Source of the DNA: Candidatus Culexmicrobium thermophilum
GTDB taxonomy: Archaea > Thermoproteota > Methanomethylicia > Culexarchaeales > B10-G16
Direction: 5' to 3'
DNA: 45,688 nucleotides
Assembly (NCBI GenBank): GCA_025061095.1
Contig: JANZKB010000001.1
Coordinates: 67,078-112,765 of the forward strand
The translations under genes and the position numbers were made by a program. Under the pieces are notes generated by a model. That model searched no databases, had not been told where the DNA came from, and was given only the letters and a program-made list of their open reading frames with translations. How positions within the stretch are numbered: the stretch's first letter is position 1; every line of letters begins with the position of its first letter. Positions 1 through 40,270 of the stretch are shown piece by piece.

Positions 1-27
1 TTATGTTTATATCTCTTCCATGAAGAT

Positions 28-495
28 TCAACCTATAACTTTGAACATAACCATTGCGGATTCTCCATTCCTATAATAGTTAGAAATGACGTATGCCTTT
101 TTATAACCAAGTTTAAGATACAGGTTTTGAGCTGCAGAATTGCTCACTCTAACTTCTAGGCGGAGAATTATGCAACCTAAATGTTTTAAACGTTCTTCAG
201 CATTCAGCATTAAGAGGCGGCCTATTCCCCTTCGGCGGAAATTTTCATCCACCGCAATGGATAGGATGTGTCCCAGATAATTGTATCTGACAGTTGAAAT
301 TATATAGCCAACTACTAAATTATCTAATTCGGCCACGAGGAAAGTGTCAGGGGAAGATAACATTAGAAATCTAAGTAATCTTTTGGAGTATGGTTCTAGA
401 AAGGAGCGTGCCTCAATGTCATATATTCTGGGAATATCGGTTTCTAAGGCTCTTCTCACAATTAAATCATTTAGGGACATTGAAGAAGCCTCCAT
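28..495 (-). CDS. rimI: RimI/Ard1-family GNAT N-acetyltransferase
   Basis: GHILSIAVDENFRRRGIGRLLM acetyl-CoA motif, LEVRVSN..AQNLY.KLGY, YYRNGESA.VM. The true start may be the second Met. Confidence 0.9.
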   Translation of the reverse strand: MEASSMSLNDLIVRRALETDIPRIYDIEARSFLEPYSKRLLRFLMLSSPDTFLVAELDNLVVGYIISTVRYNYLGHILSIAVDENFRRRGIGRLLMLNAEERLKHLGCIILRLEVRVSNSAAQNLYLKLGYKKAYVISNYYRNGESAMVMFKVIG

Positions 496-552
496 ACAGC
501 TAATAATAAATAAAAAGTTGCAAAGATATTATTTTATTTGGAGGTTTAAGTT

Positions 553-1218
553 ATGAAGTTGAAATGGTTAAGCCATGCAGGCTTTCTCATCGAAATCGAT
601 GAAAAAAGATTACTGATAGATCCGTGGATTAAAGGAAATCCCCTTGCTAAATGTACTTTGGATGAATTGGATGGGATAGATGCAGTTTTAGTAACCCATG
701 ATCACAGCGACCATATGGGAGATGCCATTGAAATAGCCATAAGAAATAATGCTAAATTTATAGGGATCTATGAGTTAAGCCAATATGCAGCTAAAAAGGG
801 AGTAAAAAATGTTGTAGGTATGAATATAGGTGGAACCATAAATTTGGAGGGGCTAAGCATTATAATGGTCCAGGCATTCCATTCATCCAATATTGGAATG
901 CCCACGGGATATATAATTAGAGAGAGAGAAGGAGTTTACCATGCAGGGGATACGGGGCTATTTTATGATATGAAATTGCTGGCTGAACTTTACAAACCTA
1001 GAGTTGTACTTCTACCAATAGGGGGACATTTCACCATGGGGCTGAGGGAAGCTGCCGAAGCTGTGAAATTGATGGATCCTGAAATTGCCATTCCCATGCA
1101 TTACAACACGTTTCCCCCGATCGTTCAAGATCCCAATAAATTTAGAGAGATAGTTAAGGAGAAAGCTCCCCGCACAAAAGTTATCATAGCAGAGATAAAT
1201 GAGTGGATAGAAATATAG
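553..1218 (+). CDS. Metallo-beta-lactamase-fold metal-dependent hydrolase (UPF0173/UlaG-like)
   Basis: THDHSDH, AFHSS, YHAGDTG, LPIGGHFTMG and PMHYNTFP motifs; GGAGGT Shine-Dalgarno upstream. Confidence 0.9.
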   Translation: MKLKWLSHAGFLIEIDEKRLLIDPWIKGNPLAKCTLDELDGIDAVLVTHDHSDHMGDAIEIAIRNNAKFIGIYELSQYAAKKGVKNVVGMNIGGTINLEGLSIIMVQAFHSSNIGMPTGYIIREREGVYHAGDTGLFYDMKLLAELYKPRVVLLPIGGHFTMGLREAAEAVKLMDPEIAIPMHYNTFPPIVQDPNKFREIVKEKAPRTKVIIAEINEWIEI

Positions 1219-1222
1219 ATGA

Positions 1223-2680
1223 ATGTTAATAGCATCGGTGAGCAAAGCTGAATTGAATATGCCTGAAGAAGAATTAAATGTAAAGGAAATGGAAGTAATT
1301 AAAAACATATATGTAAATAATGGTAGAATTACGGTTAAAGCCCTCTCCCAGATGAGTAAAATCGATTTAAACACGCTTAACTCGATAATTGAAAAACTTC
1401 GGAAACTTGGCATAATTAATAAAAGGGAGATGACGATCAGAAAGGCAAAAATAAGCAGGAAAAGAGGTGGAAATGAATTAGCAGAGAGATTACTGTTCGA
1501 CATGTTGAGTAAGAGAAGAAGGAAGGAGATAACGATTAAAGGTTTAAAGAGAATTCTGGGAGAAGAACTTGCAACAATTGCTATTGGCAAGGGTATTGAT
1601 ATTGGTTTAATTAAGATAGAATCGAATAAAGTAAAGCTGATAAAAAGCAACTTTCCCTATACATTGGAAGAAAAAATTTTGGAGAGAATTGTTGAGGGAG
1701 AAGAGGTCATAGTGGAAAGGTTGAGTAAAAATGTTGAAGAAGCATTGAAAAAATTGGTGGACAGGGGACTTATAAAGTTGAGAGAGGAAAAAGTGAACAG
1801 TATTACTTTAACTGAGAAGGGATTAGAAATTGCGAAGAGGCTGAGAAGAATGGAGATTACTGGAGCTTTAGATGAGAATGATATTGTAGAGGAAAAATGG
1901 AGGAAAAAGAAACTTAAAAAATATGATTTCAAGACGCAGCCACTCCCTGTGAAATTCGGAGAAGAACATTTGGCGATACAATATTTAAGAAGGATAAAAA
2001 CGTTTTTAGAGCTTTATGGATTCGTCGAAGTTGAGAGCGGGGTGATAACAAGTGAGCTTTGGAGCTTCGACATGCTTAACTATAATCAGGAGCATCCTAG
2101 AAGAGCTATAAATAAATTATATTATGTAAAGAACGTCGAGTTGAAGGAGGAAATAAACTTTGAAAAGGTGAAGGAGTACCAGGAGAGTATTTGGGGATAT
2201 AAATGGAGCAGGGAGAGAGCGAAGAGAATTATACTGTCGATCAACCCAGCATCCTTTCTCATTAGAACTTCCAGTGAAAACACTAACTTAAAAAGAGTTT
2301 ATACAGTGTCTAGGGTTCTATTAGAGGGGAGAGGGGAGGATGGAAGACCATTAGAAAAAATATTAATTGGAGCATTAGACTATTCGCCTAATGTAAATCT
2401 CAGCAAACTTTTATATTTATGTAAACTGTTGCTTTCACATTTAGGATTTGAAGAATTTTCAGTATCTCCAATGTATTTACCATATGCTAGACCTGCATTT
2501 AAAGTTGAAGTTCAGGGAAACGGGATAATTGAAGGAGGCTTACTAAGGCAGGAAATATGTGAAGTATTAGAATTGGATGGTGGAATTGTTTTTAACATCG
2601 ACTTAGAGCATATAATCAAATGCAGAGTGAAGAATTTCAAATGTTTCTCAAAGAAGCTTGAAGCCTTAGGAAGAAGGTGA
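1223..2680 (+). CDS. pheS: Archaeal-type phenylalanyl-tRNA synthetase alpha-subunit paralog with degenerate catalytic motifs (probable pseudo-enzyme)
   Basis: N-terminal wHTH-like region, W..K.LKKYD, GF.E...I.SE.WSFDML...QEHP.R and WGYKWS.ERA match archaeal PheS. Motif 2 (RVFR) reads RVLL, FPFTEP reads LPYARP, and motif 3 (GxGxER) reads NIDLEH. Confidence 0.8.
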   Translation: MLIASVSKAELNMPEEELNVKEMEVIKNIYVNNGRITVKALSQMSKIDLNTLNSIIEKLRKLGIINKREMTIRKAKISRKRGGNELAERLLFDMLSKRRRKEITIKGLKRILGEELATIAIGKGIDIGLIKIESNKVKLIKSNFPYTLEEKILERIVEGEEVIVERLSKNVEEALKKLVDRGLIKLREEKVNSITLTEKGLEIAKRLRRMEITGALDENDIVEEKWRKKKLKKYDFKTQPLPVKFGEEHLAIQYLRRIKTFLELYGFVEVESGVITSELWSFDMLNYNQEHPRRAINKLYYVKNVELKEEINFEKVKEYQESIWGYKWSRERAKRIILSINPASFLIRTSSENTNLKRVYTVSRVLLEGRGEDGRPLEKILIGALDYSPNVNLSKLLYLCKLLLSHLGFEEFSVSPMYLPYARPAFKVEVQGNGIIEGGLLRQEICEVLELDGGIVFNIDLEHIIKCRVKNFKCFSKKLEALGRR

Positions 2681-4368
2681 AGGATGTGGTGAAGGTAAGA
2701 GTAAAACTGGAATATTTAAGTGAACTTATAGGAGAGAAGGTTAAAATCAATGAAGCTATAAAACTTCTAAGTTTAATTAGATGTAATGTAATCTCAAAGA
2801 AGAACAATAGACTTTTAGTTGAGGTTCCATATGAAAGAGCAGATTTATACTCAGCGGAGGGAGTTGCAAGAGCATTATTATTTTTGAGAGGAAGAGAGAT
2901 CGACCTTGGCGGAAGAGTGGAAAAAGGCAATTATATGATTTCCGCTAGAGAAGCAGGAAGAGCCGTACAGCCATATATAGGTGGAGCTGTAATAGAGGGG
3001 TGGAGAATCAGCGATGAAAGTAGAATACAGGTTGAACAGTTAATATCTAATCTACAAAAATATTATTGTGGAAAGAGGAGAAGAGCGTTCATAGAAATTC
3101 ATGACTTATCGAATATTCAGTTCCCACTTAGCTATACATTGATGAAAAAGAGGAATATAAAATTCAAACCGCGAAATAAGGGGGAAGAGATGAACGGTGA
3201 GGAGATGCTTAAGGAACTCAGAATGGAGCATTTCTTTGCAGGATTAGAGGAGTATCCGGTGATTATAGATGCTGGAGGCAAATTTATCTCCATGCCGCCT
3301 ATAACAGGTTCCGATGAAACGAAATTACCCTGTGAGAGTAGTGTTCGCCGCTTAAATTTAATGATTATTATGACTGCTGAAACCCGAAAACTTCTCGAAA
3401 GAATATTGAAAGTTGTCTGTGCAAATATGCTTCAAAATGCTGAAAAAGCATTTCAGATGGAAGTGGCCTACAGGGAAAATGTACATTTAACTCCAAATGT
3501 AAATTGCCGGTCGATCAATACAAGTTTCCATGAAATTTTAAAGATTATTGGAAGTAAGATTGATGAAATGATCGTTCTAAATGGTTTACGAAGAGCTGGA
3601 TTTAAAGTAAAAGAACGGGAAGGAGAAATTGAAATAGCTATTCCATTTTATAGAATTGATGCAAGAAATATCTATGATGTTATCGACGATGCTTTGTCGA
3701 TAATGGGATATGATATGTTAATACAAGATGGATTGGAGATTACAGTTTCGAAGATCGGTAGACCGCTAAATAAAGAAGTCATATTAGATAGATTAAGGGA
3801 TTTGATGGTTGGATTCGGTTTCAAAGAGGTTTTAACTAGTCTTTTTTTAAAGGAGAAGAATAGGTTGGGGGGAGAATTAATAGAAATCTCCAATCCATCA
3901 TTGTTAGAATATAGATTTTTACGTAACACTATAATTCCGAATTTATTAGAAGTTTTAAGAGAAAATAGGCATTTAAAGAAGCCTATAAAGATCTTTGAGA
4001 TCGGGGAAACCTATGAGGGAAATCTTCAAAGAGGATATGTTAAAAATTATACTTTAACCGGAGTTTTCATGTATCATAGAACCTGTTTTGAAAGGATACA
4101 TGGAATAGTGGATGTAATCCTTAAACTTTTAAATGTAAAATATAGGCTTAGCAGAATACGTAGCAATTATTTTATGGATGGGAGGGCAGCAGGCATCATC
4201 TATAGAAATAGACGGGTGGGAGTTTTAGGGGAGATAAATCCCGAGATTCTTGTGAAGAATAGATTGACAAGTCCAGTTACAGGGTTTGAAATCCATGTGA
4301 ATAAATTGATGGGGCCGCGGAGATTTGAACTCCGGTCACGGGGACCCATTGGGGGATTAAAGCTCTAA
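2677..4368 (+). CDS. pheT: Archaeal-type phenylalanyl-tRNA synthetase beta-subunit paralog (divergent editing domain)
   Basis: R.DLYSAEGVARAL, PYIGGAVI, SMPPI, YRID....D..DD..GY, SNP....Y..LR..IIPNLLE, KIFEIGE, F.DGRAA, G.LGEI.PE.L. Overlaps pheS by 4 nt (GTGA); the 3' end runs into an antisense tRNA. Confidence 0.88.
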   Translation: MKDVVKVRVKLEYLSELIGEKVKINEAIKLLSLIRCNVISKKNNRLLVEVPYERADLYSAEGVARALLFLRGREIDLGGRVEKGNYMISAREAGRAVQPYIGGAVIEGWRISDESRIQVEQLISNLQKYYCGKRRRAFIEIHDLSNIQFPLSYTLMKKRNIKFKPRNKGEEMNGEEMLKELRMEHFFAGLEEYPVIIDAGGKFISMPPITGSDETKLPCESSVRRLNLMIIMTAETRKLLERILKVVCANMLQNAEKAFQMEVAYRENVHLTPNVNCRSINTSFHEILKIIGSKIDEMIVLNGLRRAGFKVKEREGEIEIAIPFYRIDARNIYDVIDDALSIMGYDMLIQDGLEITVSKIGRPLNKEVILDRLRDLMVGFGFKEVLTSLFLKEKNRLGGELIEISNPSLLEYRFLRNTIIPNLLEVLRENRHLKKPIKIFEIGETYEGNLQRGYVKNYTLTGVFMYHRTCFERIHGIVDVILKLLNVKYRLSRIRSNYFMDGRAAGIIYRNRRVGVLGEINPEILVKNRLTSPVTGFEIHVNKLMGPRRFELRSRGPIGGLKL

Positions 4369-4400
4369 CCCCGCAGCCTTCCAAGCTAGCCTACGGCCCC
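4310..4400 (-). tRNA. tRNA-Pro(UGG) with an 18-nt intron at position 33/34
   Basis: Reverse complement: GGGGCCG acceptor stem, CGGGG/CCCCG anticodon stem, GTTCAAATC T-loop. Removing AGAGCTTTAATCCCCCAA gives the loop TT-TGG-GT. Confidence 0.9.
4349..4366 (-). other. tRNA intron with bulge-helix-bulge (BHB) motif
   Basis: Central helix GGGG(28-31)/CCCC, 3-nt bulges TT|A and AA|T, flanking C27-G35 and GA/TC pairs. Confidence 0.85.
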
Positions 4401-4511
4401 AAATCCGTTAGAAACTAATTAACCGAAATGCTTGAAAAATTTTTCCGCTTATACTGCTAAGATTTTTATGTCTCCAAATAGAAGAGAATTAATGGGGCAT
4501 TAAACTTCACG

Positions 4512-5219
4512 GTGAAATATTTGTCGATTGAAGAGAGAATAGCAAAGAGAATTGCAGGGGAAATAGTGCTTTCAAATAAACCTTGGAAGACTATGCGTAA
4601 GTGGAGGGAGATGTTCAAGATCTCTCAAATCGAAGTTGCATCCAAAATGAACATTTCACCTTCAGTTATAAGTGACTATGAGGGGGGAAGAAGGAAGTCT
4701 CCGGGCTCACGTTTCATAAAGAAATTTGTGGAAACATTGATTGAGATAGATAAGGGGAGGGGTGGACCAACCATTAAGGAATTCGAGAAATTGATTGATC
4801 TCTCCGCAGGGGCAATATTAGATATGAGAGAATACTCTGAGCCTATAAGTGTGAAAGAGCTTTGCAGCATTATTGAAGCCGAGATCATAGCATGTGCACA
4901 TTTAGGGGGTAGGAAGATATTCGGTCACACCGTTGTGGACAGTATAAGATGTATCGAATCCCTATCTGGAATGGAATTTCTAAAACTTATGGGAACCACT
5001 TCGATGAGAGCACTAATCTTCACGAAAGTATCTATAGGAAAATCACCTATGATTGCTGTGAGAGTGCATCCGATAAAACCAGCGGCAGTAATCATGCATG
5101 GTACTGATCATGTTGACCCGTTGGCTATAAGATTGGCGAGAATTGAACAGATACCGTTGGCGCTTTCATATATAGAAAATGTTGATAAGATGATAGATAG
5201 GTTGAGAAGAATAGTTTAG
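4512..5219 (+). CDS. XRE-family HTH transcriptional regulator with C-terminal DRTGG-like domain (COG1709-like)
   Basis: IAGEIVLS.KP..TMRKWRE.F.ISQ.EVA....SPSVISDYEGGRRKSPG, G.TVVDS, RALIFT.VS.GKSPMIAVRV....P..V..HG. Confidence 0.85.
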   Translation: MKYLSIEERIAKRIAGEIVLSNKPWKTMRKWREMFKISQIEVASKMNISPSVISDYEGGRRKSPGSRFIKKFVETLIEIDKGRGGPTIKEFEKLIDLSAGAILDMREYSEPISVKELCSIIEAEIIACAHLGGRKIFGHTVVDSIRCIESLSGMEFLKLMGTTSMRALIFTKVSIGKSPMIAVRVHPIKPAAVIMHGTDHVDPLAIRLARIEQIPLALSYIENVDKMIDRLRRIV

Positions 5220-5270: not shown

Positions 5271-7487
5271 GTGTCTACGGATAGAAGAACAACCTCGGAA
5301 AAAATTCTAAATGCAATTTCAAACAGGATAAGAATTGAGATCATTAAAAAATTAAGTAGGGTTGGAGAGTATAGTTTCACCGAACTTATGACGGAGCTGA
5401 ACATGTCGCCGAGAACGGATGCAGGTAAATTTGGGTATCACATAAAGTTATTATCCAATAGCGGTATCATAGCAACAAATCCGAAAAATGGGCGATATAT
5501 ATTAACGGATCTAGGTAAAATGCTTGCAGATTTAATCTGGGAATTAGAGGAGATAACAAGAAAGAAGGAAAAGAAGATACTTGTAAGAACATCGGAGTTA
5601 ATAATGGAGCCTTTTGAACGAAGAAAGATCACGGAAGCTTTAATGCGTGAGGCTAGAGCTCCAAGAAAGATTGCGGAAATCATCGCCAAAGAGGCTGAGG
5701 AAAGAATCTTGCAGAGTAATATAAGTTATCTGACTGCACCTTTAATAAGGGAGTTCGTTAATGCAATATTGCTTGAGCAGGGATTAGAAGATTATAGACA
5801 TAGTTTAACTAGGCTTGGACTACCAGTTTATGATGTTGAAAGGATGCTTGAAATGAGCCGTCCAACTGCCTTGGTTCCGATAGAGATACATGCCAAGGCA
5901 GGTAATGCCGTGATGAGCGAGTATGCACTTATGAAAGAATTGCCCCGCAGAATATCGGAAGCACATATGTCCGGAAGTATACATATAAGTAATATAAGCT
6001 GTTGGGGATTGAAACCAGCTACAATACATCATGATGTTTCATTTTTTCTGAAGCATGGTCTCAAGTTAGGGGAACTTGGATATGTATTTTCAAATAGTAG
6101 AGGAGCAAGAAGCTTCAAGGAGGCTTTAGATATAATTTTGAGACTAGCCTATATTATGCATAGCAGCATCTCGGTTGGACAGGTGGTAGACGATATAAAT
6201 GTGGTTTTAGCTCCATTTATAAGGAACATGAAATATGATGAAATAAAGAGGGAGATAAAGGAACAGTTGATACGAATAAACCAGTTATTCTCCTATGAGG
6301 GAAAACTTTTACCTGTCGCTTTTGGAATGAGCATAAAGGATGAAAGCGAATATTTTGAAGAGGAATTAAGTCTTTTCAGAGCGTTCATGGAAGTTATGTG
6401 TGAAGGAGATCATTTGGGCAGACCTTTCCTGACGCCGCTTCCCATAATCAAATTGAAAGAAAAAGATCTCGATAAATATGAGGAGGAGGTTCAGCTGCTT
6501 TGCAAGTTGATATCCAAATGGTCGACACCATACATAATCAATTTGGATTGGCAAACCAATATGGCGGTAAGCTACTGTTGGGATCTTTCAAGGCTATCTA
6601 AAGGGGAGGGAGATGTTAATAGGTTGAAGCGAACCGGACAGTTAGACAGCGTTTTAATAAATCTTCCGAGAATAGCTTTAGAGGCAAATGGAAATGATGA
6701 AATTTTCTTTTCTAAATTGAATGATGCTATAAGCATAAGTATTGAAGCGTTAAGGGAGAAGATGAGGATTTTAAAGAAGAGGATGAACAATGGGCTTCTA
6801 GCTTTGCTCACAATGAAGGCTGGAGATGACCCCTACTATAATTTGGATGATGCTTATGGAAATATTGGGTATGTAGGTTTGTCTGAAGCAGTTAAGATTC
6901 ATACAGGGGAGGAAATGACGGAAGATGATGATGCTTTAAGATTTGCTGAAAAGATAGTTAATTATATGGTGAGAAAAACCTCTAAAAGAAGAATAAAAGT
7001 GAAGGTTAGCGGAATATCAGTGGAGGATCCTGGTAGAAGACTTTTGAAAACGGATATTGCCAGATTCGGCATTAGAAGTTTGCAGGAGGAGCTTGGCAGA
7101 AATCTGAATAAATACACTTCAGGAACCAATGTTCCCTACGAATTAAAGATACCGTTGAAAACAAGAATAAATATTGAGAGTAAATTTCAAAGAATGACTT
7201 TGGGTGGACATGGACTTAACATCTTCCTTAAAAATCCAATTCCCGAGCCAAATTACCTATTCAAAGTTTTATCGGAGCTTATTGAGAGTAAAAAGTTAGG
7301 GGCATTCACATTTTCAAAGGACTTCACATATTGTAGGAAATGTGGAAGCATGAGTGACGGATTATATGATAAATGTCCAAAATGTGGAAGATCAATTAAC
7401 AATATAGTTAACTACGTTAAGGAGGTGAACATTTATCAACCCGTCAACATTATTGAAGCAAGATACAGAAATAAATATATTATATGA
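5271..7487 (+). CDS. nrdD: ArsR-type wHTH + ATP-cone + class III ribonucleotide reductase (NrdD)-like fusion, apparently catalytically inactive
   Basis: N-terminal RIEIIKKL..YSFTELM..GKFGYHIKLL..Y.LTDLG; ATP cone VRTS..EPFERRKI..LTAPLIREFVNAILLE; TRLGLPVYDV, INLPRIA, GYVGLSE and CxxC..CPxC retained. No RxxGY glycyl-radical loop. Confidence 0.85.
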   Translation: MSTDRRTTSEKILNAISNRIRIEIIKKLSRVGEYSFTELMTELNMSPRTDAGKFGYHIKLLSNSGIIATNPKNGRYILTDLGKMLADLIWELEEITRKKEKKILVRTSELIMEPFERRKITEALMREARAPRKIAEIIAKEAEERILQSNISYLTAPLIREFVNAILLEQGLEDYRHSLTRLGLPVYDVERMLEMSRPTALVPIEIHAKAGNAVMSEYALMKELPRRISEAHMSGSIHISNISCWGLKPATIHHDVSFFLKHGLKLGELGYVFSNSRGARSFKEALDIILRLAYIMHSSISVGQVVDDINVVLAPFIRNMKYDEIKREIKEQLIRINQLFSYEGKLLPVAFGMSIKDESEYFEEELSLFRAFMEVMCEGDHLGRPFLTPLPIIKLKEKDLDKYEEEVQLLCKLISKWSTPYIINLDWQTNMAVSYCWDLSRLSKGEGDVNRLKRTGQLDSVLINLPRIALEANGNDEIFFSKLNDAISISIEALREKMRILKKRMNNGLLALLTMKAGDDPYYNLDDAYGNIGYVGLSEAVKIHTGEEMTEDDDALRFAEKIVNYMVRKTSKRRIKVKVSGISVEDPGRRLLKTDIARFGIRSLQEELGRNLNKYTSGTNVPYELKIPLKTRINIESKFQRMTLGGHGLNIFLKNPIPEPNYLFKVLSELIESKKLGAFTFSKDFTYCRKCGSMSDGLYDKCPKCGRSINNIVNYVKEVNIYQPVNIIEARYRNKYII

Positions 7488-35096: not shown

Positions 35097-35444
35097 GGGG
35101 CATGTGGGCGTAGCTCACCTTCTGTTTCTGCGGGATTCAGCTAAGCGGCCTACCCGGCCTCATGCGGTCCTCATAGGCCATACTTGGCCTTACCCCCATA
35201 GGCTGGCCGTTGCATCCATTCTCCCAGCCTCGTCGACGGGTTATCTCGATGCCCATTGCTGGGCATCTTCTCGGCCTAGAAGCCTCAGCCGCCTCCTCCT
35301 CATCCAGCTGGGAGAGGTCTCGTTTCTATGCCAGAGCCAGGGCTCTCGCCCTGCCCCTCACGGGGCTATGGCTCCGCATGGGGGTGAGCTTCCTCAGGCA
35401 TCCCGTTTCCGAAGATGCCCGAAGCCCGCTCGCCCACTTGCCCC
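35097..35444 (-). ncRNA. rnpB: RNase P RNA (archaeal type A)
   Basis: P1 GGGGCA.GTGGGCG/CGCCCAC.TGCCCC; P4 GAGGAAGCTCACC with ACAGAAGGTGAGCTA; P6 CATGCGG/CCGCATG; P8 and P9 hairpins; AGAAACG and TGCAACGG conserved regions. Confidence 0.93.
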
Positions 35445-35466
35445 AAATAATCCTCCTAAAAGTTTC

Positions 35467-35482
35467 AATAAAAATTTTCTTA
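35467..35482 (-). promoter_or_regulatory. Putative BRE/TATA for rnpB
   Basis: AAGAAAA-TTTTTATT about 25 nt upstream of the RNase P RNA 5' end. Confidence 0.5.
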
Positions 35483-35486
35483 AACT

Positions 35487-35523
35487 GCCATGCACAGGCC
35501 ATGAATTTTCGCCTGGATGTGGT
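35487..35523 (-). other. 3' arm of the 23S rRNA processing stem with BHB
   Basis: Pairs with 38609-38645; central helix TCGC/GCGA, bulges TCA and AAA. Confidence 0.9.
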
Positions 35524-35526
35524 TGT

Positions 35527-38606
<3,080 letters not shown>

Positions 38607-38608
38607 TT

Positions 38609-38645
38609 ACCACACCCAGTGAGCGATTCACGGCCTGTGCATGGC
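38609..38645 (-). other. 5' arm of the 23S rRNA processing stem with BHB
   Basis: GCCATGCACAGGCCGTGAA-TCGC-TCA-CTGGGTGTGGT complementary to 35487-35523. Confidence 0.9.
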
Positions 38646-38712
38646 GATCATAAGAGTAAAACACTCTTCTCGCCCTTTATCTGGAGGCTAAGCCTCCAGA
38701 CTGCATCTCACG

Positions 38713-38754
38713 AAGCCTGAAGGAAGCCCAAATCCTTTCCGTGGCTCCCCGCAG
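38713..38754 (-). other. 3' arm of the 16S rRNA processing stem with BHB
   Basis: Pairs with 40295-40337; central helix CGTG/CACG, bulges AGT and GAA. Confidence 0.9.
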
Positions 38755-38768
38755 CAATTGATATTTTA

Positions 38769-40270
<1,502 letters not shown>

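Follow-up and report, generated by a model that had tools for sequence, protein, structure and literature searches.

We describe here two adjacent genes, parA and parB, in a 45,688-nt stretch of contig C1 (the window) from a metagenome-assembled genome (MAG) of the hot-vent archaeon Candidatus Culexmicrobium thermophilum. Their products resemble the alpha and beta subunits of archaeal phenylalanyl-tRNA synthetase (PheRS; subunits PheS and PheT) and have lost both the synthetic and the editing site of that enzyme. On the sequence evidence assembled below, the pair is a real pseudo-synthetase confined to a small uncultured archaeal clade: synthetase homology is combined with loss of the catalytic residues, coexistence with a canonical enzyme in the same genome, and purifying selection across lineages. 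We consider its identity as a pseudo-synthetase retained under selection to be very probable; this assessment does not extend to the RNA-binding role proposed further on, which is much more tentative. The host MAG comprises 1.43 Mb in 130 contigs and is 93% complete with 3.57% estimated contamination. All coordinates are positions in the window (Table 1).

A preliminary description of this DNA had reported two full-length, frameshift-free open reading frames (ORFs) coupled by a GTGA overlap. Both frames run their full length with zero internal stops, and the overlap between the end of parA and the start of parB is present in the sequence. The real start of parB, on the other hand, may lie 9–12 nt downstream of the overlap, at one of the in-frame GTG codons at 2686 and 2689, which sit after a GGTGA Shine-Dalgarno-like site and agree better with the N termini of the orthologs. 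The two genes are tightly coupled under either start.

Table 1. Features of the parA/parB locus, in window coordinates
Feature	Position	Strand	Basis or remark
Metallo-beta-lactamase (MBL)-fold metal-dependent hydrolase (PRK00685-type)	553..1218	+	Pfam Lactamase_B_2, 97 bits; NCBIfam NF001911, 265 bits (cutoff 144)
parA, PheRS alpha-like pseudo-subunit, 485 aa, ATG start	1223..2680	+	Family scores; alignment to canonical PheS; ESM Atlas model
Motif 1 core GFVEVE	2018..2035	+	G266, F267, and E269 invariant in 58 sequences (7 paralogs and 51 canonical PheS)
LSINPA for canonical LRSQTT (aa 338–343)	2234..2251	+	Alignment to canonical PheS
Degenerate motif 2, SRVLLEGRGEDGRPLEKILIGA for canonical DRNYRPDRIDATHLPEFNQCEG (aa 363–384)	2309..2374	+	Alignment to canonical PheS
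LPYARP for Phe-pocket loop FPFTEP (aa 419–424)	2477..2494	+	Alignment to canonical PheS
Degenerate motif 3, NIDLEH for GIDRLA (aa 458–463), Arg to Leu	2594..2611	+	Alignment to canonical PheS
parB, PheRS beta-like pseudo-subunit, 563 aa, GTG start (true start likely GTG 2686 or 2689)	2677..4368	+	B1, B3/4, B5, catalytic-like module (CLM)
PPITGS, editing-site Asn to Gly	3295..3312	+	Alignment; Asn is human beta N238/P. horikoshii N217, counted from the alignment
B5 motif YRIDARNIYDVIDDA, retained	3649..3693	+	Domain match and alignment
tRNA-Pro with 18-nt intron	4308..4401	-	Antisense overlap with the last 20 parB codons (4308–4368)

The parA protein has the fold and domain order of PheRS alpha, with a basic winged-helix N-terminal region (aa 1–230) followed by a class II core-like domain (aa 231–485). 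Residues 233–446 match the PheRS alpha class II core family (PF01409, 53.5 bits), and the N terminus matches the winged-helix family HTH_24 (29.6 bits), with MarR and TrmB matches under their cutoffs. The model stored in the ESM Atlas (mean predicted local distance difference test score, pLDDT, of 0.77) has PheRS alpha clusters as its nearest structures, with template modeling (TM) scores of 0.46–0.52. Identity to the host's own canonical PheS is 28%. The score against the archaeal PheS model NF003210 (PRK04172) is 198.3 bits against a cutoff of 350, and that against TIGR00468 is 103.4 bits against a cutoff of 237.45. Motif 1, the subunit-interface motif of class II synthetases, keeps an invariant core (Table 1). 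The motif 2 and motif 3 arginines, the motif 2 His, Gln, and Glu, and the Phe-pocket loop FPFTEP are all missing, and alignment to the host's canonical PheS bore out each of the four alpha replacements that had been noticed at the outset. Within motif 2, Arg is changed to Leu, ATH to GRP, and the amino-acid-binding Q..E to I..G.

The same losses recur among the orthologs of parA. Across seven paralog alphas, the place of the motif 3 Arg is occupied by L, D, K, L, E, K, and S, so that Arg is absent throughout; none of the seven keeps the His of the motif 2 ATH, the amino-group-binding Q/E, or the first Phe of FPFTEP. An Arg is kept at the aligned motif 2 position in two of them. The residues that replace the catalytic site differ from ortholog to ortholog, which indicates that no new conserved active site is under selection. 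Because the family cutoff score, the catalytic motifs, and the Phe pocket all fail, parA is placed by its sequence outside the functional PheRS alpha family.

The beta-like protein retains more of its family resemblance. parB passes the PheRS beta model TIGR00471 marginally (296.8 bits against a cutoff of 282.65), is 30% identical to the canonical beta subunit of the host, and preserves the beta domain order B1, B3/4, B5, CLM. CLM (PF17759, 112.5 bits) and B5 (PF03484, 58.8 bits) are clearly recognized, and the B1 model reaches only 14 bits, under its cutoff. The protein aligns end to end with human PheRS beta (3l4g_B, residues 48–542) and with the P. horikoshii editing-domain structure 2cxi_A. 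The editing site itself is altered, as the preliminary description had proposed: the B3/4 strings read QLISN, FIE, PPITG, and IIMTA versus canonical MQEAL, AIG, PPIIN, and IELTG, and the B5 motif is kept. A review places the editing-site Asn (human N238/P. horikoshii N217) at the scissile ester (PMC3275996). This Asn is missing from parB; five paralog betas have G, E, C, M, and N at this position, canonical betas have N, and the equivalents of the editing-site Asn, Asp, and Thr vary freely among the paralogs. Because the fold and domain order are kept, with a motif 2 Arg in two alphas and an editing Asn in one beta, the pair could be imagined as a synthetase or ligase that has diverged very far, whether its substrate is Phe or not, or as a free-standing trans-editing factor. 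Together with replacements that are unlike between orthologs in both subunits, the loss from every paralog alpha of the motif 3 Arg, motif 2 His, Q/E binders, and leading FPFTEP Phe makes any remaining enzymatic activity very unlikely.

A canonical pheS/pheT pair is present elsewhere in the genome, as the reading put forward in the preliminary description requires: the adjacent genes on contig C38 score 562.1 bits (pheS) and 522.9 bits (pheT), with every motif intact. The host has one tRNA-Phe gene, tRNA-Phe(GAA), and, to judge from these genes, its charging is done by this separate canonical pair. Other tRNA-Phe candidates were discarded. On contig C4, ARAGORN called a second "tRNA-Phe"; this is a class II tRNA of 88 nt with an intron, its anticodon was read as GAG, and it was assigned to Leu; the tRNA that overlaps parB was also considered as tRNA-Phe and is tRNA-Pro. 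In intron mode, ARAGORN also called one "tRNA-Stop(tta)" with an 18-nt intron in the host genome, and intron-mode calls need to be checked by hand.

The presence of two PheRS pairs in a 130-contig MAG with some estimated contamination could reflect a binning or assembly artifact that brought together genes from different organisms. Against this, parA and parB share their contig with the rRNA operon and have a GC content similar to that of their flanks; both pairs occur in five other genomes, in one of them on contigs of 843 kb and 531 kb; and the host's canonical copy branches as expected for the organism, next to the sister family. For these reasons a binning error is so improbable as to be negligible.

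Twelve genomes of the order, from three families, were examined, and the parA/parB pair was found in six: the single genome of the window's family, all five of the sister family, and none of the six in the third family. Five of those six have a canonical PheS only, and the remaining one (74% complete) shows no PheS. No second full-length PheS was found in 28 further genomes of the class or in 60 other Thermoproteota (at least 90% complete), whose PheS score 366–609 bits. Among the 28, genome G015, from another family of the class, gave one weak additional match to PheS at C17:794-1126 (26.8 bits; 111 residues, corresponding to parA 323–432).

A profile built from six parA sequences gave 2274 hits at E ≤0.001 among 1.84 billion representative proteins. 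The best 150 of these include six full-length proteins or clusters without the catalytic arginines: four are sequences of the query set, a 474-aa protein is close to the fifth query, and the last, P0007 (484 aa, 37% identity to parA), is new. Another four of these 150 hits were flagged only for gapped motif 3 columns, and they consist of three fragments (291–459 aa) and a 508-aa protein with an intact motif 2. The source organism given for one paralog cluster is Candidatus Culexmicrobium cathedralense. A locus search with the parA protein returned nothing in genome contigs and one near-identical metagenome contig. No relatives were found in viral contigs, and a viral origin of the pair was rejected on that basis. 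The paralogs are named "hypothetical protein" or "phenylalanine--tRNA ligase subunit alpha" at NCBI; because public records name dead paralogs in this way, genome annotation and marker-gene counts in the lineage can be misled.

The surroundings of the pair are conserved among its carriers. In all six genomes the gene order is GNAT acetyltransferase (opposite strand), MBL hydrolase, parA, parB, helix-turn-helix (HTH) gene, NrdD-like gene, pyrB (opposite strand), and pyrI. The MBL hydrolase gene adjoins parA in every carrier and is located elsewhere in the paralog-free family, where the tRNA, HTH, and NrdD-like genes are adjacent and MBL-parA-parB does not intervene. No parA or parB remnant was detected beside the tRNA-HTH or MBL genes of that family; only the tRNA matched.

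The pair diverges far faster than its neighbors. Between the window and the sister family, flanking genes are 51%–75% identical, compared with 27%–30% for parA and 24%–31% for parB; even within one genus of the sister family the flanks are 60%–89% identical and parA and parB only 33% and 36%. The paralogs group into one clade in each of four trees (alpha, beta, alpha and beta joined, and alpha with 71 rows), with support of 98–100 in the Shimodaira-Hasegawa-like approximate likelihood ratio test (SH-aLRT). Their terminal branches measure 1.1–3.3 changes per site versus 0.1–0.35 for the canonical copies of the same genomes, making them approximately 7–10 times longer. Mean pairwise identity is 0.30 and 0.30 for the two alpha regions, 0.32 for B1, 0.28 for B3/4, 0.33 for B5, and 0.37 for CLM.

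Rapid and even divergence without a new conserved site, the low identity within a single genus, and absence from the third family could all be accounted for by a neutral relic, that is, a functionless duplicate or displaced original heading for loss with its frames intact by luck. The state of the reading frames argues otherwise. They are open wherever the genes are fully assembled (alpha 5/5, beta 5/5), the sixth alpha being cut only by a contig end, and two further metagenomic clusters have open frames of 484 and 474–504 aa. In an AT-rich genome whose synonymous sites are saturated between lineages, frames of 1.5 kb and 1.7 kb are unlikely to have been preserved by chance, and the start-codon coupling of parA and parB is kept as well.

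Polymorphism within the species points the same way. The near-identical metagenome contig, L046, provides a second haplotype over 12.5 kb of the locus, at 98.9% identity and with zero gaps. Compared with it, parA has 11 nonsynonymous and 9 synonymous changes, a ratio of nonsynonymous to synonymous polymorphism per site (pN/pS) of 0.31, and parB has 10 and 13, a pN/pS of 0.21; seven flanking genes pooled give approximately 0.13. For the pooled pair pN/pS is approximately 0.25, with 22 of 43 changes synonymous where synonymous sites make up 20.7% (binomial p = 9.7e-6 versus neutrality). Long cover was also obtained from DNA run X16 (positions 1–4339; 49 differences, 0 gaps), which carries the L046 haplotype at 39 of 40 listed positions and therefore adds no independent polymorphism; three other DNA runs over the locus give patchy cover. 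Between two congeners, parA has a nonsynonymous divergence (dN) of 0.217 compared with 0.05–0.15 for the flanks, and the synonymous divergence (dS) is above 1.3, saturated, or undefined; between-species dN/dS is therefore unreliable, and only the dN ratios can be used. From these counts the pair is under purifying selection, relaxed relative to its neighbors. The view that the genes are not simply decaying, put forward in the preliminary description, agrees with the intact orthologs and with both within-species ratios, and we regard a neutral relic as improbable.

In canonical-gene trees the two carrier families form a clade that excludes the third family (support 91 and 95), and a single origin in the common ancestor of the carrier families is therefore the most economical reading. 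Judged by its phylogeny and conserved gene order, the pair is vertically inherited and has persisted since before the two families split. The paralog clade itself attaches at an unresolved node in the four trees. Constraining the paralogs to group with the order's own canonical clade gave a tree 10.4 log-likelihood units worse than the free search (p = 0.37 in the approximately unbiased [AU] test), and grouping them with the other Methanomethylicia-type clade gave one 1.9 units better (p-AU 0.565); the groups were named after the tree had been seen, long branches make every placement unsafe, and neither placement is rejected.

An earlier origin for the pair might be read from some of these comparisons. 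The constrained tree with the other Methanomethylicia-type families beats that with the order's canonical clade by 12 log-likelihood units, parA scores 94–136 bits against canonical PheS of other families of the class versus 47–87 bits against those of its own order, and states such as KC and YC are common to the paralog and those other families. On these grounds the pair could be the lineage's original PheRS, displaced when a second pheST took over charging in the order's ancestor and kept thereafter, although we think this unlikely. It is an equally doubtful corollary that the displaced enzyme, stripped of both active sites, was kept as a fast-evolving, more basic RNA-binding particle. If this were true, the locus would offer a snapshot of a heteromeric synthetase becoming a non-catalytic RNA-binding complex. 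With regard to an ancestral locus, none of the window's neighbor genes was found within the short flanks examined at the canonical pheST loci of relatives. A separate observation concerns genome G014 (locus L030; 2.8 Mb, 5% contamination), from another family of the class, in which the canonical PheRS nests in the order's canonical clade and no paralog is present; this genome may be misplaced, or its bin may be mixed.

What the pair does can be approached through the parts that it has kept. The MBL hydrolase gene lies directly upstream of parA, and because the two are on the same strand and 4 nt apart they are probably co-transcribed; parA and parB would be made from one transcript, probably including the hydrolase. 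The best-kept parts of parB are motifs common to canonical beta subunits, such as P.K.FEIG and GR.A..G..GE. Because these CLM motifs and the GF.E core of motif 1 are the best kept, parA and parB probably still assemble into a PheRS-like alpha-beta particle. Consistent with such assembly, alpha and beta branch lengths rise together in the trees, and the gene junction is overlapping or close among carriers. The (alpha-beta)2 assembly and the tRNA or nucleic acid binding suggested in the preliminary description are supported indirectly by these motifs, by the coupling of the genes, and by positive charge. We propose that the particle would bind nucleic acid without catalysis, with tRNA or some other structured RNA as its most plausible ligand, through the strongly basic winged-helix domains of the alpha N terminus and a beta subunit that has become basic in B1 and CLM, and that its job would be to bind, hold, or scaffold. 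According to a review (PMC3275996), these modules are believed to bind tRNA in the canonical PheRS of archaea and eukaryotes. Charge lends the proposal weak support. Net charge of the paralog betas is +3 to +22, compared with -11 to +3 for the canonical betas of the same genomes, and it is higher in five of five genomes; B1 shifts from -4 to -11 in canonical copies to 0 to +5 in the paralogs of all five, and CLM is more basic in four of the five. The alpha N-terminal region carries a charge of +14 to +25 in all seven paralogs.

Several observations weigh against this overall explanation of the pair. The third family lacks it and so either never had it or can do without it. Proteins of AT-rich thermophiles often carry a high positive charge, and the N-terminal region of the host's canonical alpha, at +14, is equally basic. 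Divergence is uniform across domains (28%–37% identity) and no paralog-specific conserved surface was found, so whatever is selected must be loosely constrained. The selection estimate comes from a single second haplotype and 43 substitutions, and the sequencing runs listed with the locus include no RNA runs. A non-catalytic complex that binds tRNA or other RNA is put forward here only as a tentative suggestion, albeit the one that we prefer.

The retained interface-type motifs are also what would be expected if parA, parB, or both entered mixed tetramers with canonical subunits and so tuned or inhibited the active PheRS; pseudoenzymes often regulate their active relatives, as general knowledge and published abstracts suggest. 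Both subunits are always kept together and translationally coupled, as would be expected of a self-contained pair more than of one decoy subunit, and we consider such a modulator fairly unlikely. The winged-helix match at the parA N terminus, the description of B1 and B5 as DNA-binding-like folds (PMC3275996), and the high positive charge of the pair could instead indicate a DNA-binding role as an accessory to transcription or replication, on the model of PolG2. All canonical archaeal PheRS have these folds too and use them to bind tRNA, and, apart from neighbors that are also syntenic in paralog-free relatives, no replication or transcription gene has a conserved link to the locus; a DNA-binding role is unlikely for the pair. 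HisZ, a dead HisRS paralog that regulates HisG, offers a precedent for a regulatory subunit that would sense Phe on behalf of a metabolic enzyme. Such a sensor is highly improbable here, with the Phe-pocket residues kept in no ortholog and no aromatic amino acid biosynthesis genes in the conserved neighborhood. An anti-phage defense or toxin-antitoxin system was rejected after a PADLOC search in which the only matches were weak ones of winged-helix type (best E 3.1e-4) and neither parB nor the MBL hydrolase had any.

The 3' end of parB is shared with a tRNA gene on the opposite strand (Table 1). ARAGORN reads the anticodon of this tRNA-Pro as AGG, and a shifted intron gives UGG. The only Pro anticodons elsewhere in the host genome are GGG and CGG, with UGG otherwise missing, and the anticodon is most likely UGG. 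The parB tail, GPRRFELRSRGP, recurs in one ortholog (genome G003), and the same tRNA-Pro adjoins the HTH gene in paralog-free relatives. On the minus strand, ORFs of 85–212 aa lie over the MBL hydrolase gene, parA, and parB (1012–1650, 1657–1932, 2637–2930, and 3672–3929). The longest of them (1012–1650) has a pN/pS of 1.0 versus the second haplotype, and for this reason the antisense ORFs are most likely not genes.

Further downstream, an Xre-type HTH protein of 235 aa (4512–5219, +) belongs to no NCBIfam family; it is 64%–69% identical among relatives, the paralog-free family included, and its gene is always beside the tRNA-Pro and the NrdD-like gene. The NrdD-like protein (5271–7487, +) has an N-terminal ArsR-type winged helix and an ATP-cone, and it falls below all NrdD family cutoffs (233.8 bits against 326.35 for TIGR02487). 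By eye, zinc-ribbon cysteines are present at its C terminus and an obvious glycyl-radical motif is not seen. The gene is syntenic across the order at 51%–54% identity, and its product may be another non-standard enzyme homolog. The 16S-23S rRNA operon occupies 35100–40270 (-), and an RNase P RNA gene (35100–35441) lies directly downstream of the 23S gene. The rRNA has a GC content of approximately 62%, compared with 36% for the genome, which points to a hyperthermophile.

The dead synthetase paralogs that, to our knowledge, have become regulators or accessory factors are single chains. In the present case both genes of a heteromeric synthetase have been copied, have lost the synthetic and editing sites, and have been kept coupled across two archaeal families. 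If the pair does bind tRNA or another RNA without charging it, hyperthermophilic archaea would have a tRNA-handling factor of a new kind, and the pair would also be a natural experiment on the parts of PheRS that are needed for assembly and RNA binding alone. Our literature search found no description of a dead alpha and beta PheRS pair in archaea, in agreement with the statement in the preliminary description that no case was known for both subunits. The main text of the Culexarchaeia paper (PMC9723716) has 0 occurrences of phenylalan-, aminoacyl, paralog, or pheS, and its supplements may list gene content. The nearest published reuses of PheRS parts that were found include none with both subunits and none from archaea.

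Canonical archaeal and eukaryotic (alpha-beta)2 PheRS (NF003210/TIGR00471; human 3L4G) resembles the window pair in the three N-terminal winged-helix-type domains and class II core of alpha, in the B1, B3/4, B5, CLM order of beta, and in having adjacent, coupled genes. The window pair differs in lacking the motif 2 and 3 catalytic residues, the Phe pocket, and the editing Asn, with an alpha score of 198 versus 350 bits; it evolves 7–10 times faster, its beta is basic rather than acidic or neutral, and charging is left to a second pair. HisZ, the PolG2 accessory subunit, and the HisRS-like domain of GCN2 are known dead synthetase paralogs, and the window pair would at most work as they do. Like parA and parB, they are class II synthetase homologs without catalytic residues that selection has retained beside an active enzyme, but they are single chains with a known partner or ligand, whereas the window pair comprises both chains and has lost its amino acid pocket.

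Other comparisons involve PheRS parts in particular. The fars-3-derived toxins of C. tropicalis are reported as PheRS-subunit duplicates within toxin-antidote elements that have F-box antidotes (PMC12680543). As described there, they share with our pair a role for such duplicates outside aminoacylation, but they are eukaryotic and involve one subunit only, and the window pair shows no sign of toxicity or an antidote. In animals, the Drosophila and human alpha-PheRS are credited with an aminoacylation-independent role that acts through the N-terminal domain (PMC9094542); in that account it is the active subunit itself, not a separate dead paralog, that has the additional function. The B3/4 module of PheRS beta is also reused outside the synthetase. 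CtdA is described as a free-standing, catalytically active B3/4-domain deacylase (PMC12449066, PMC12268091), and LRRC47 (PDB: 6zxd_k) matches parB with an E value of 7.6e-11. These, going by the published descriptions, are single domains or fusions, whereas parB keeps the whole beta architecture and not the editing residues.

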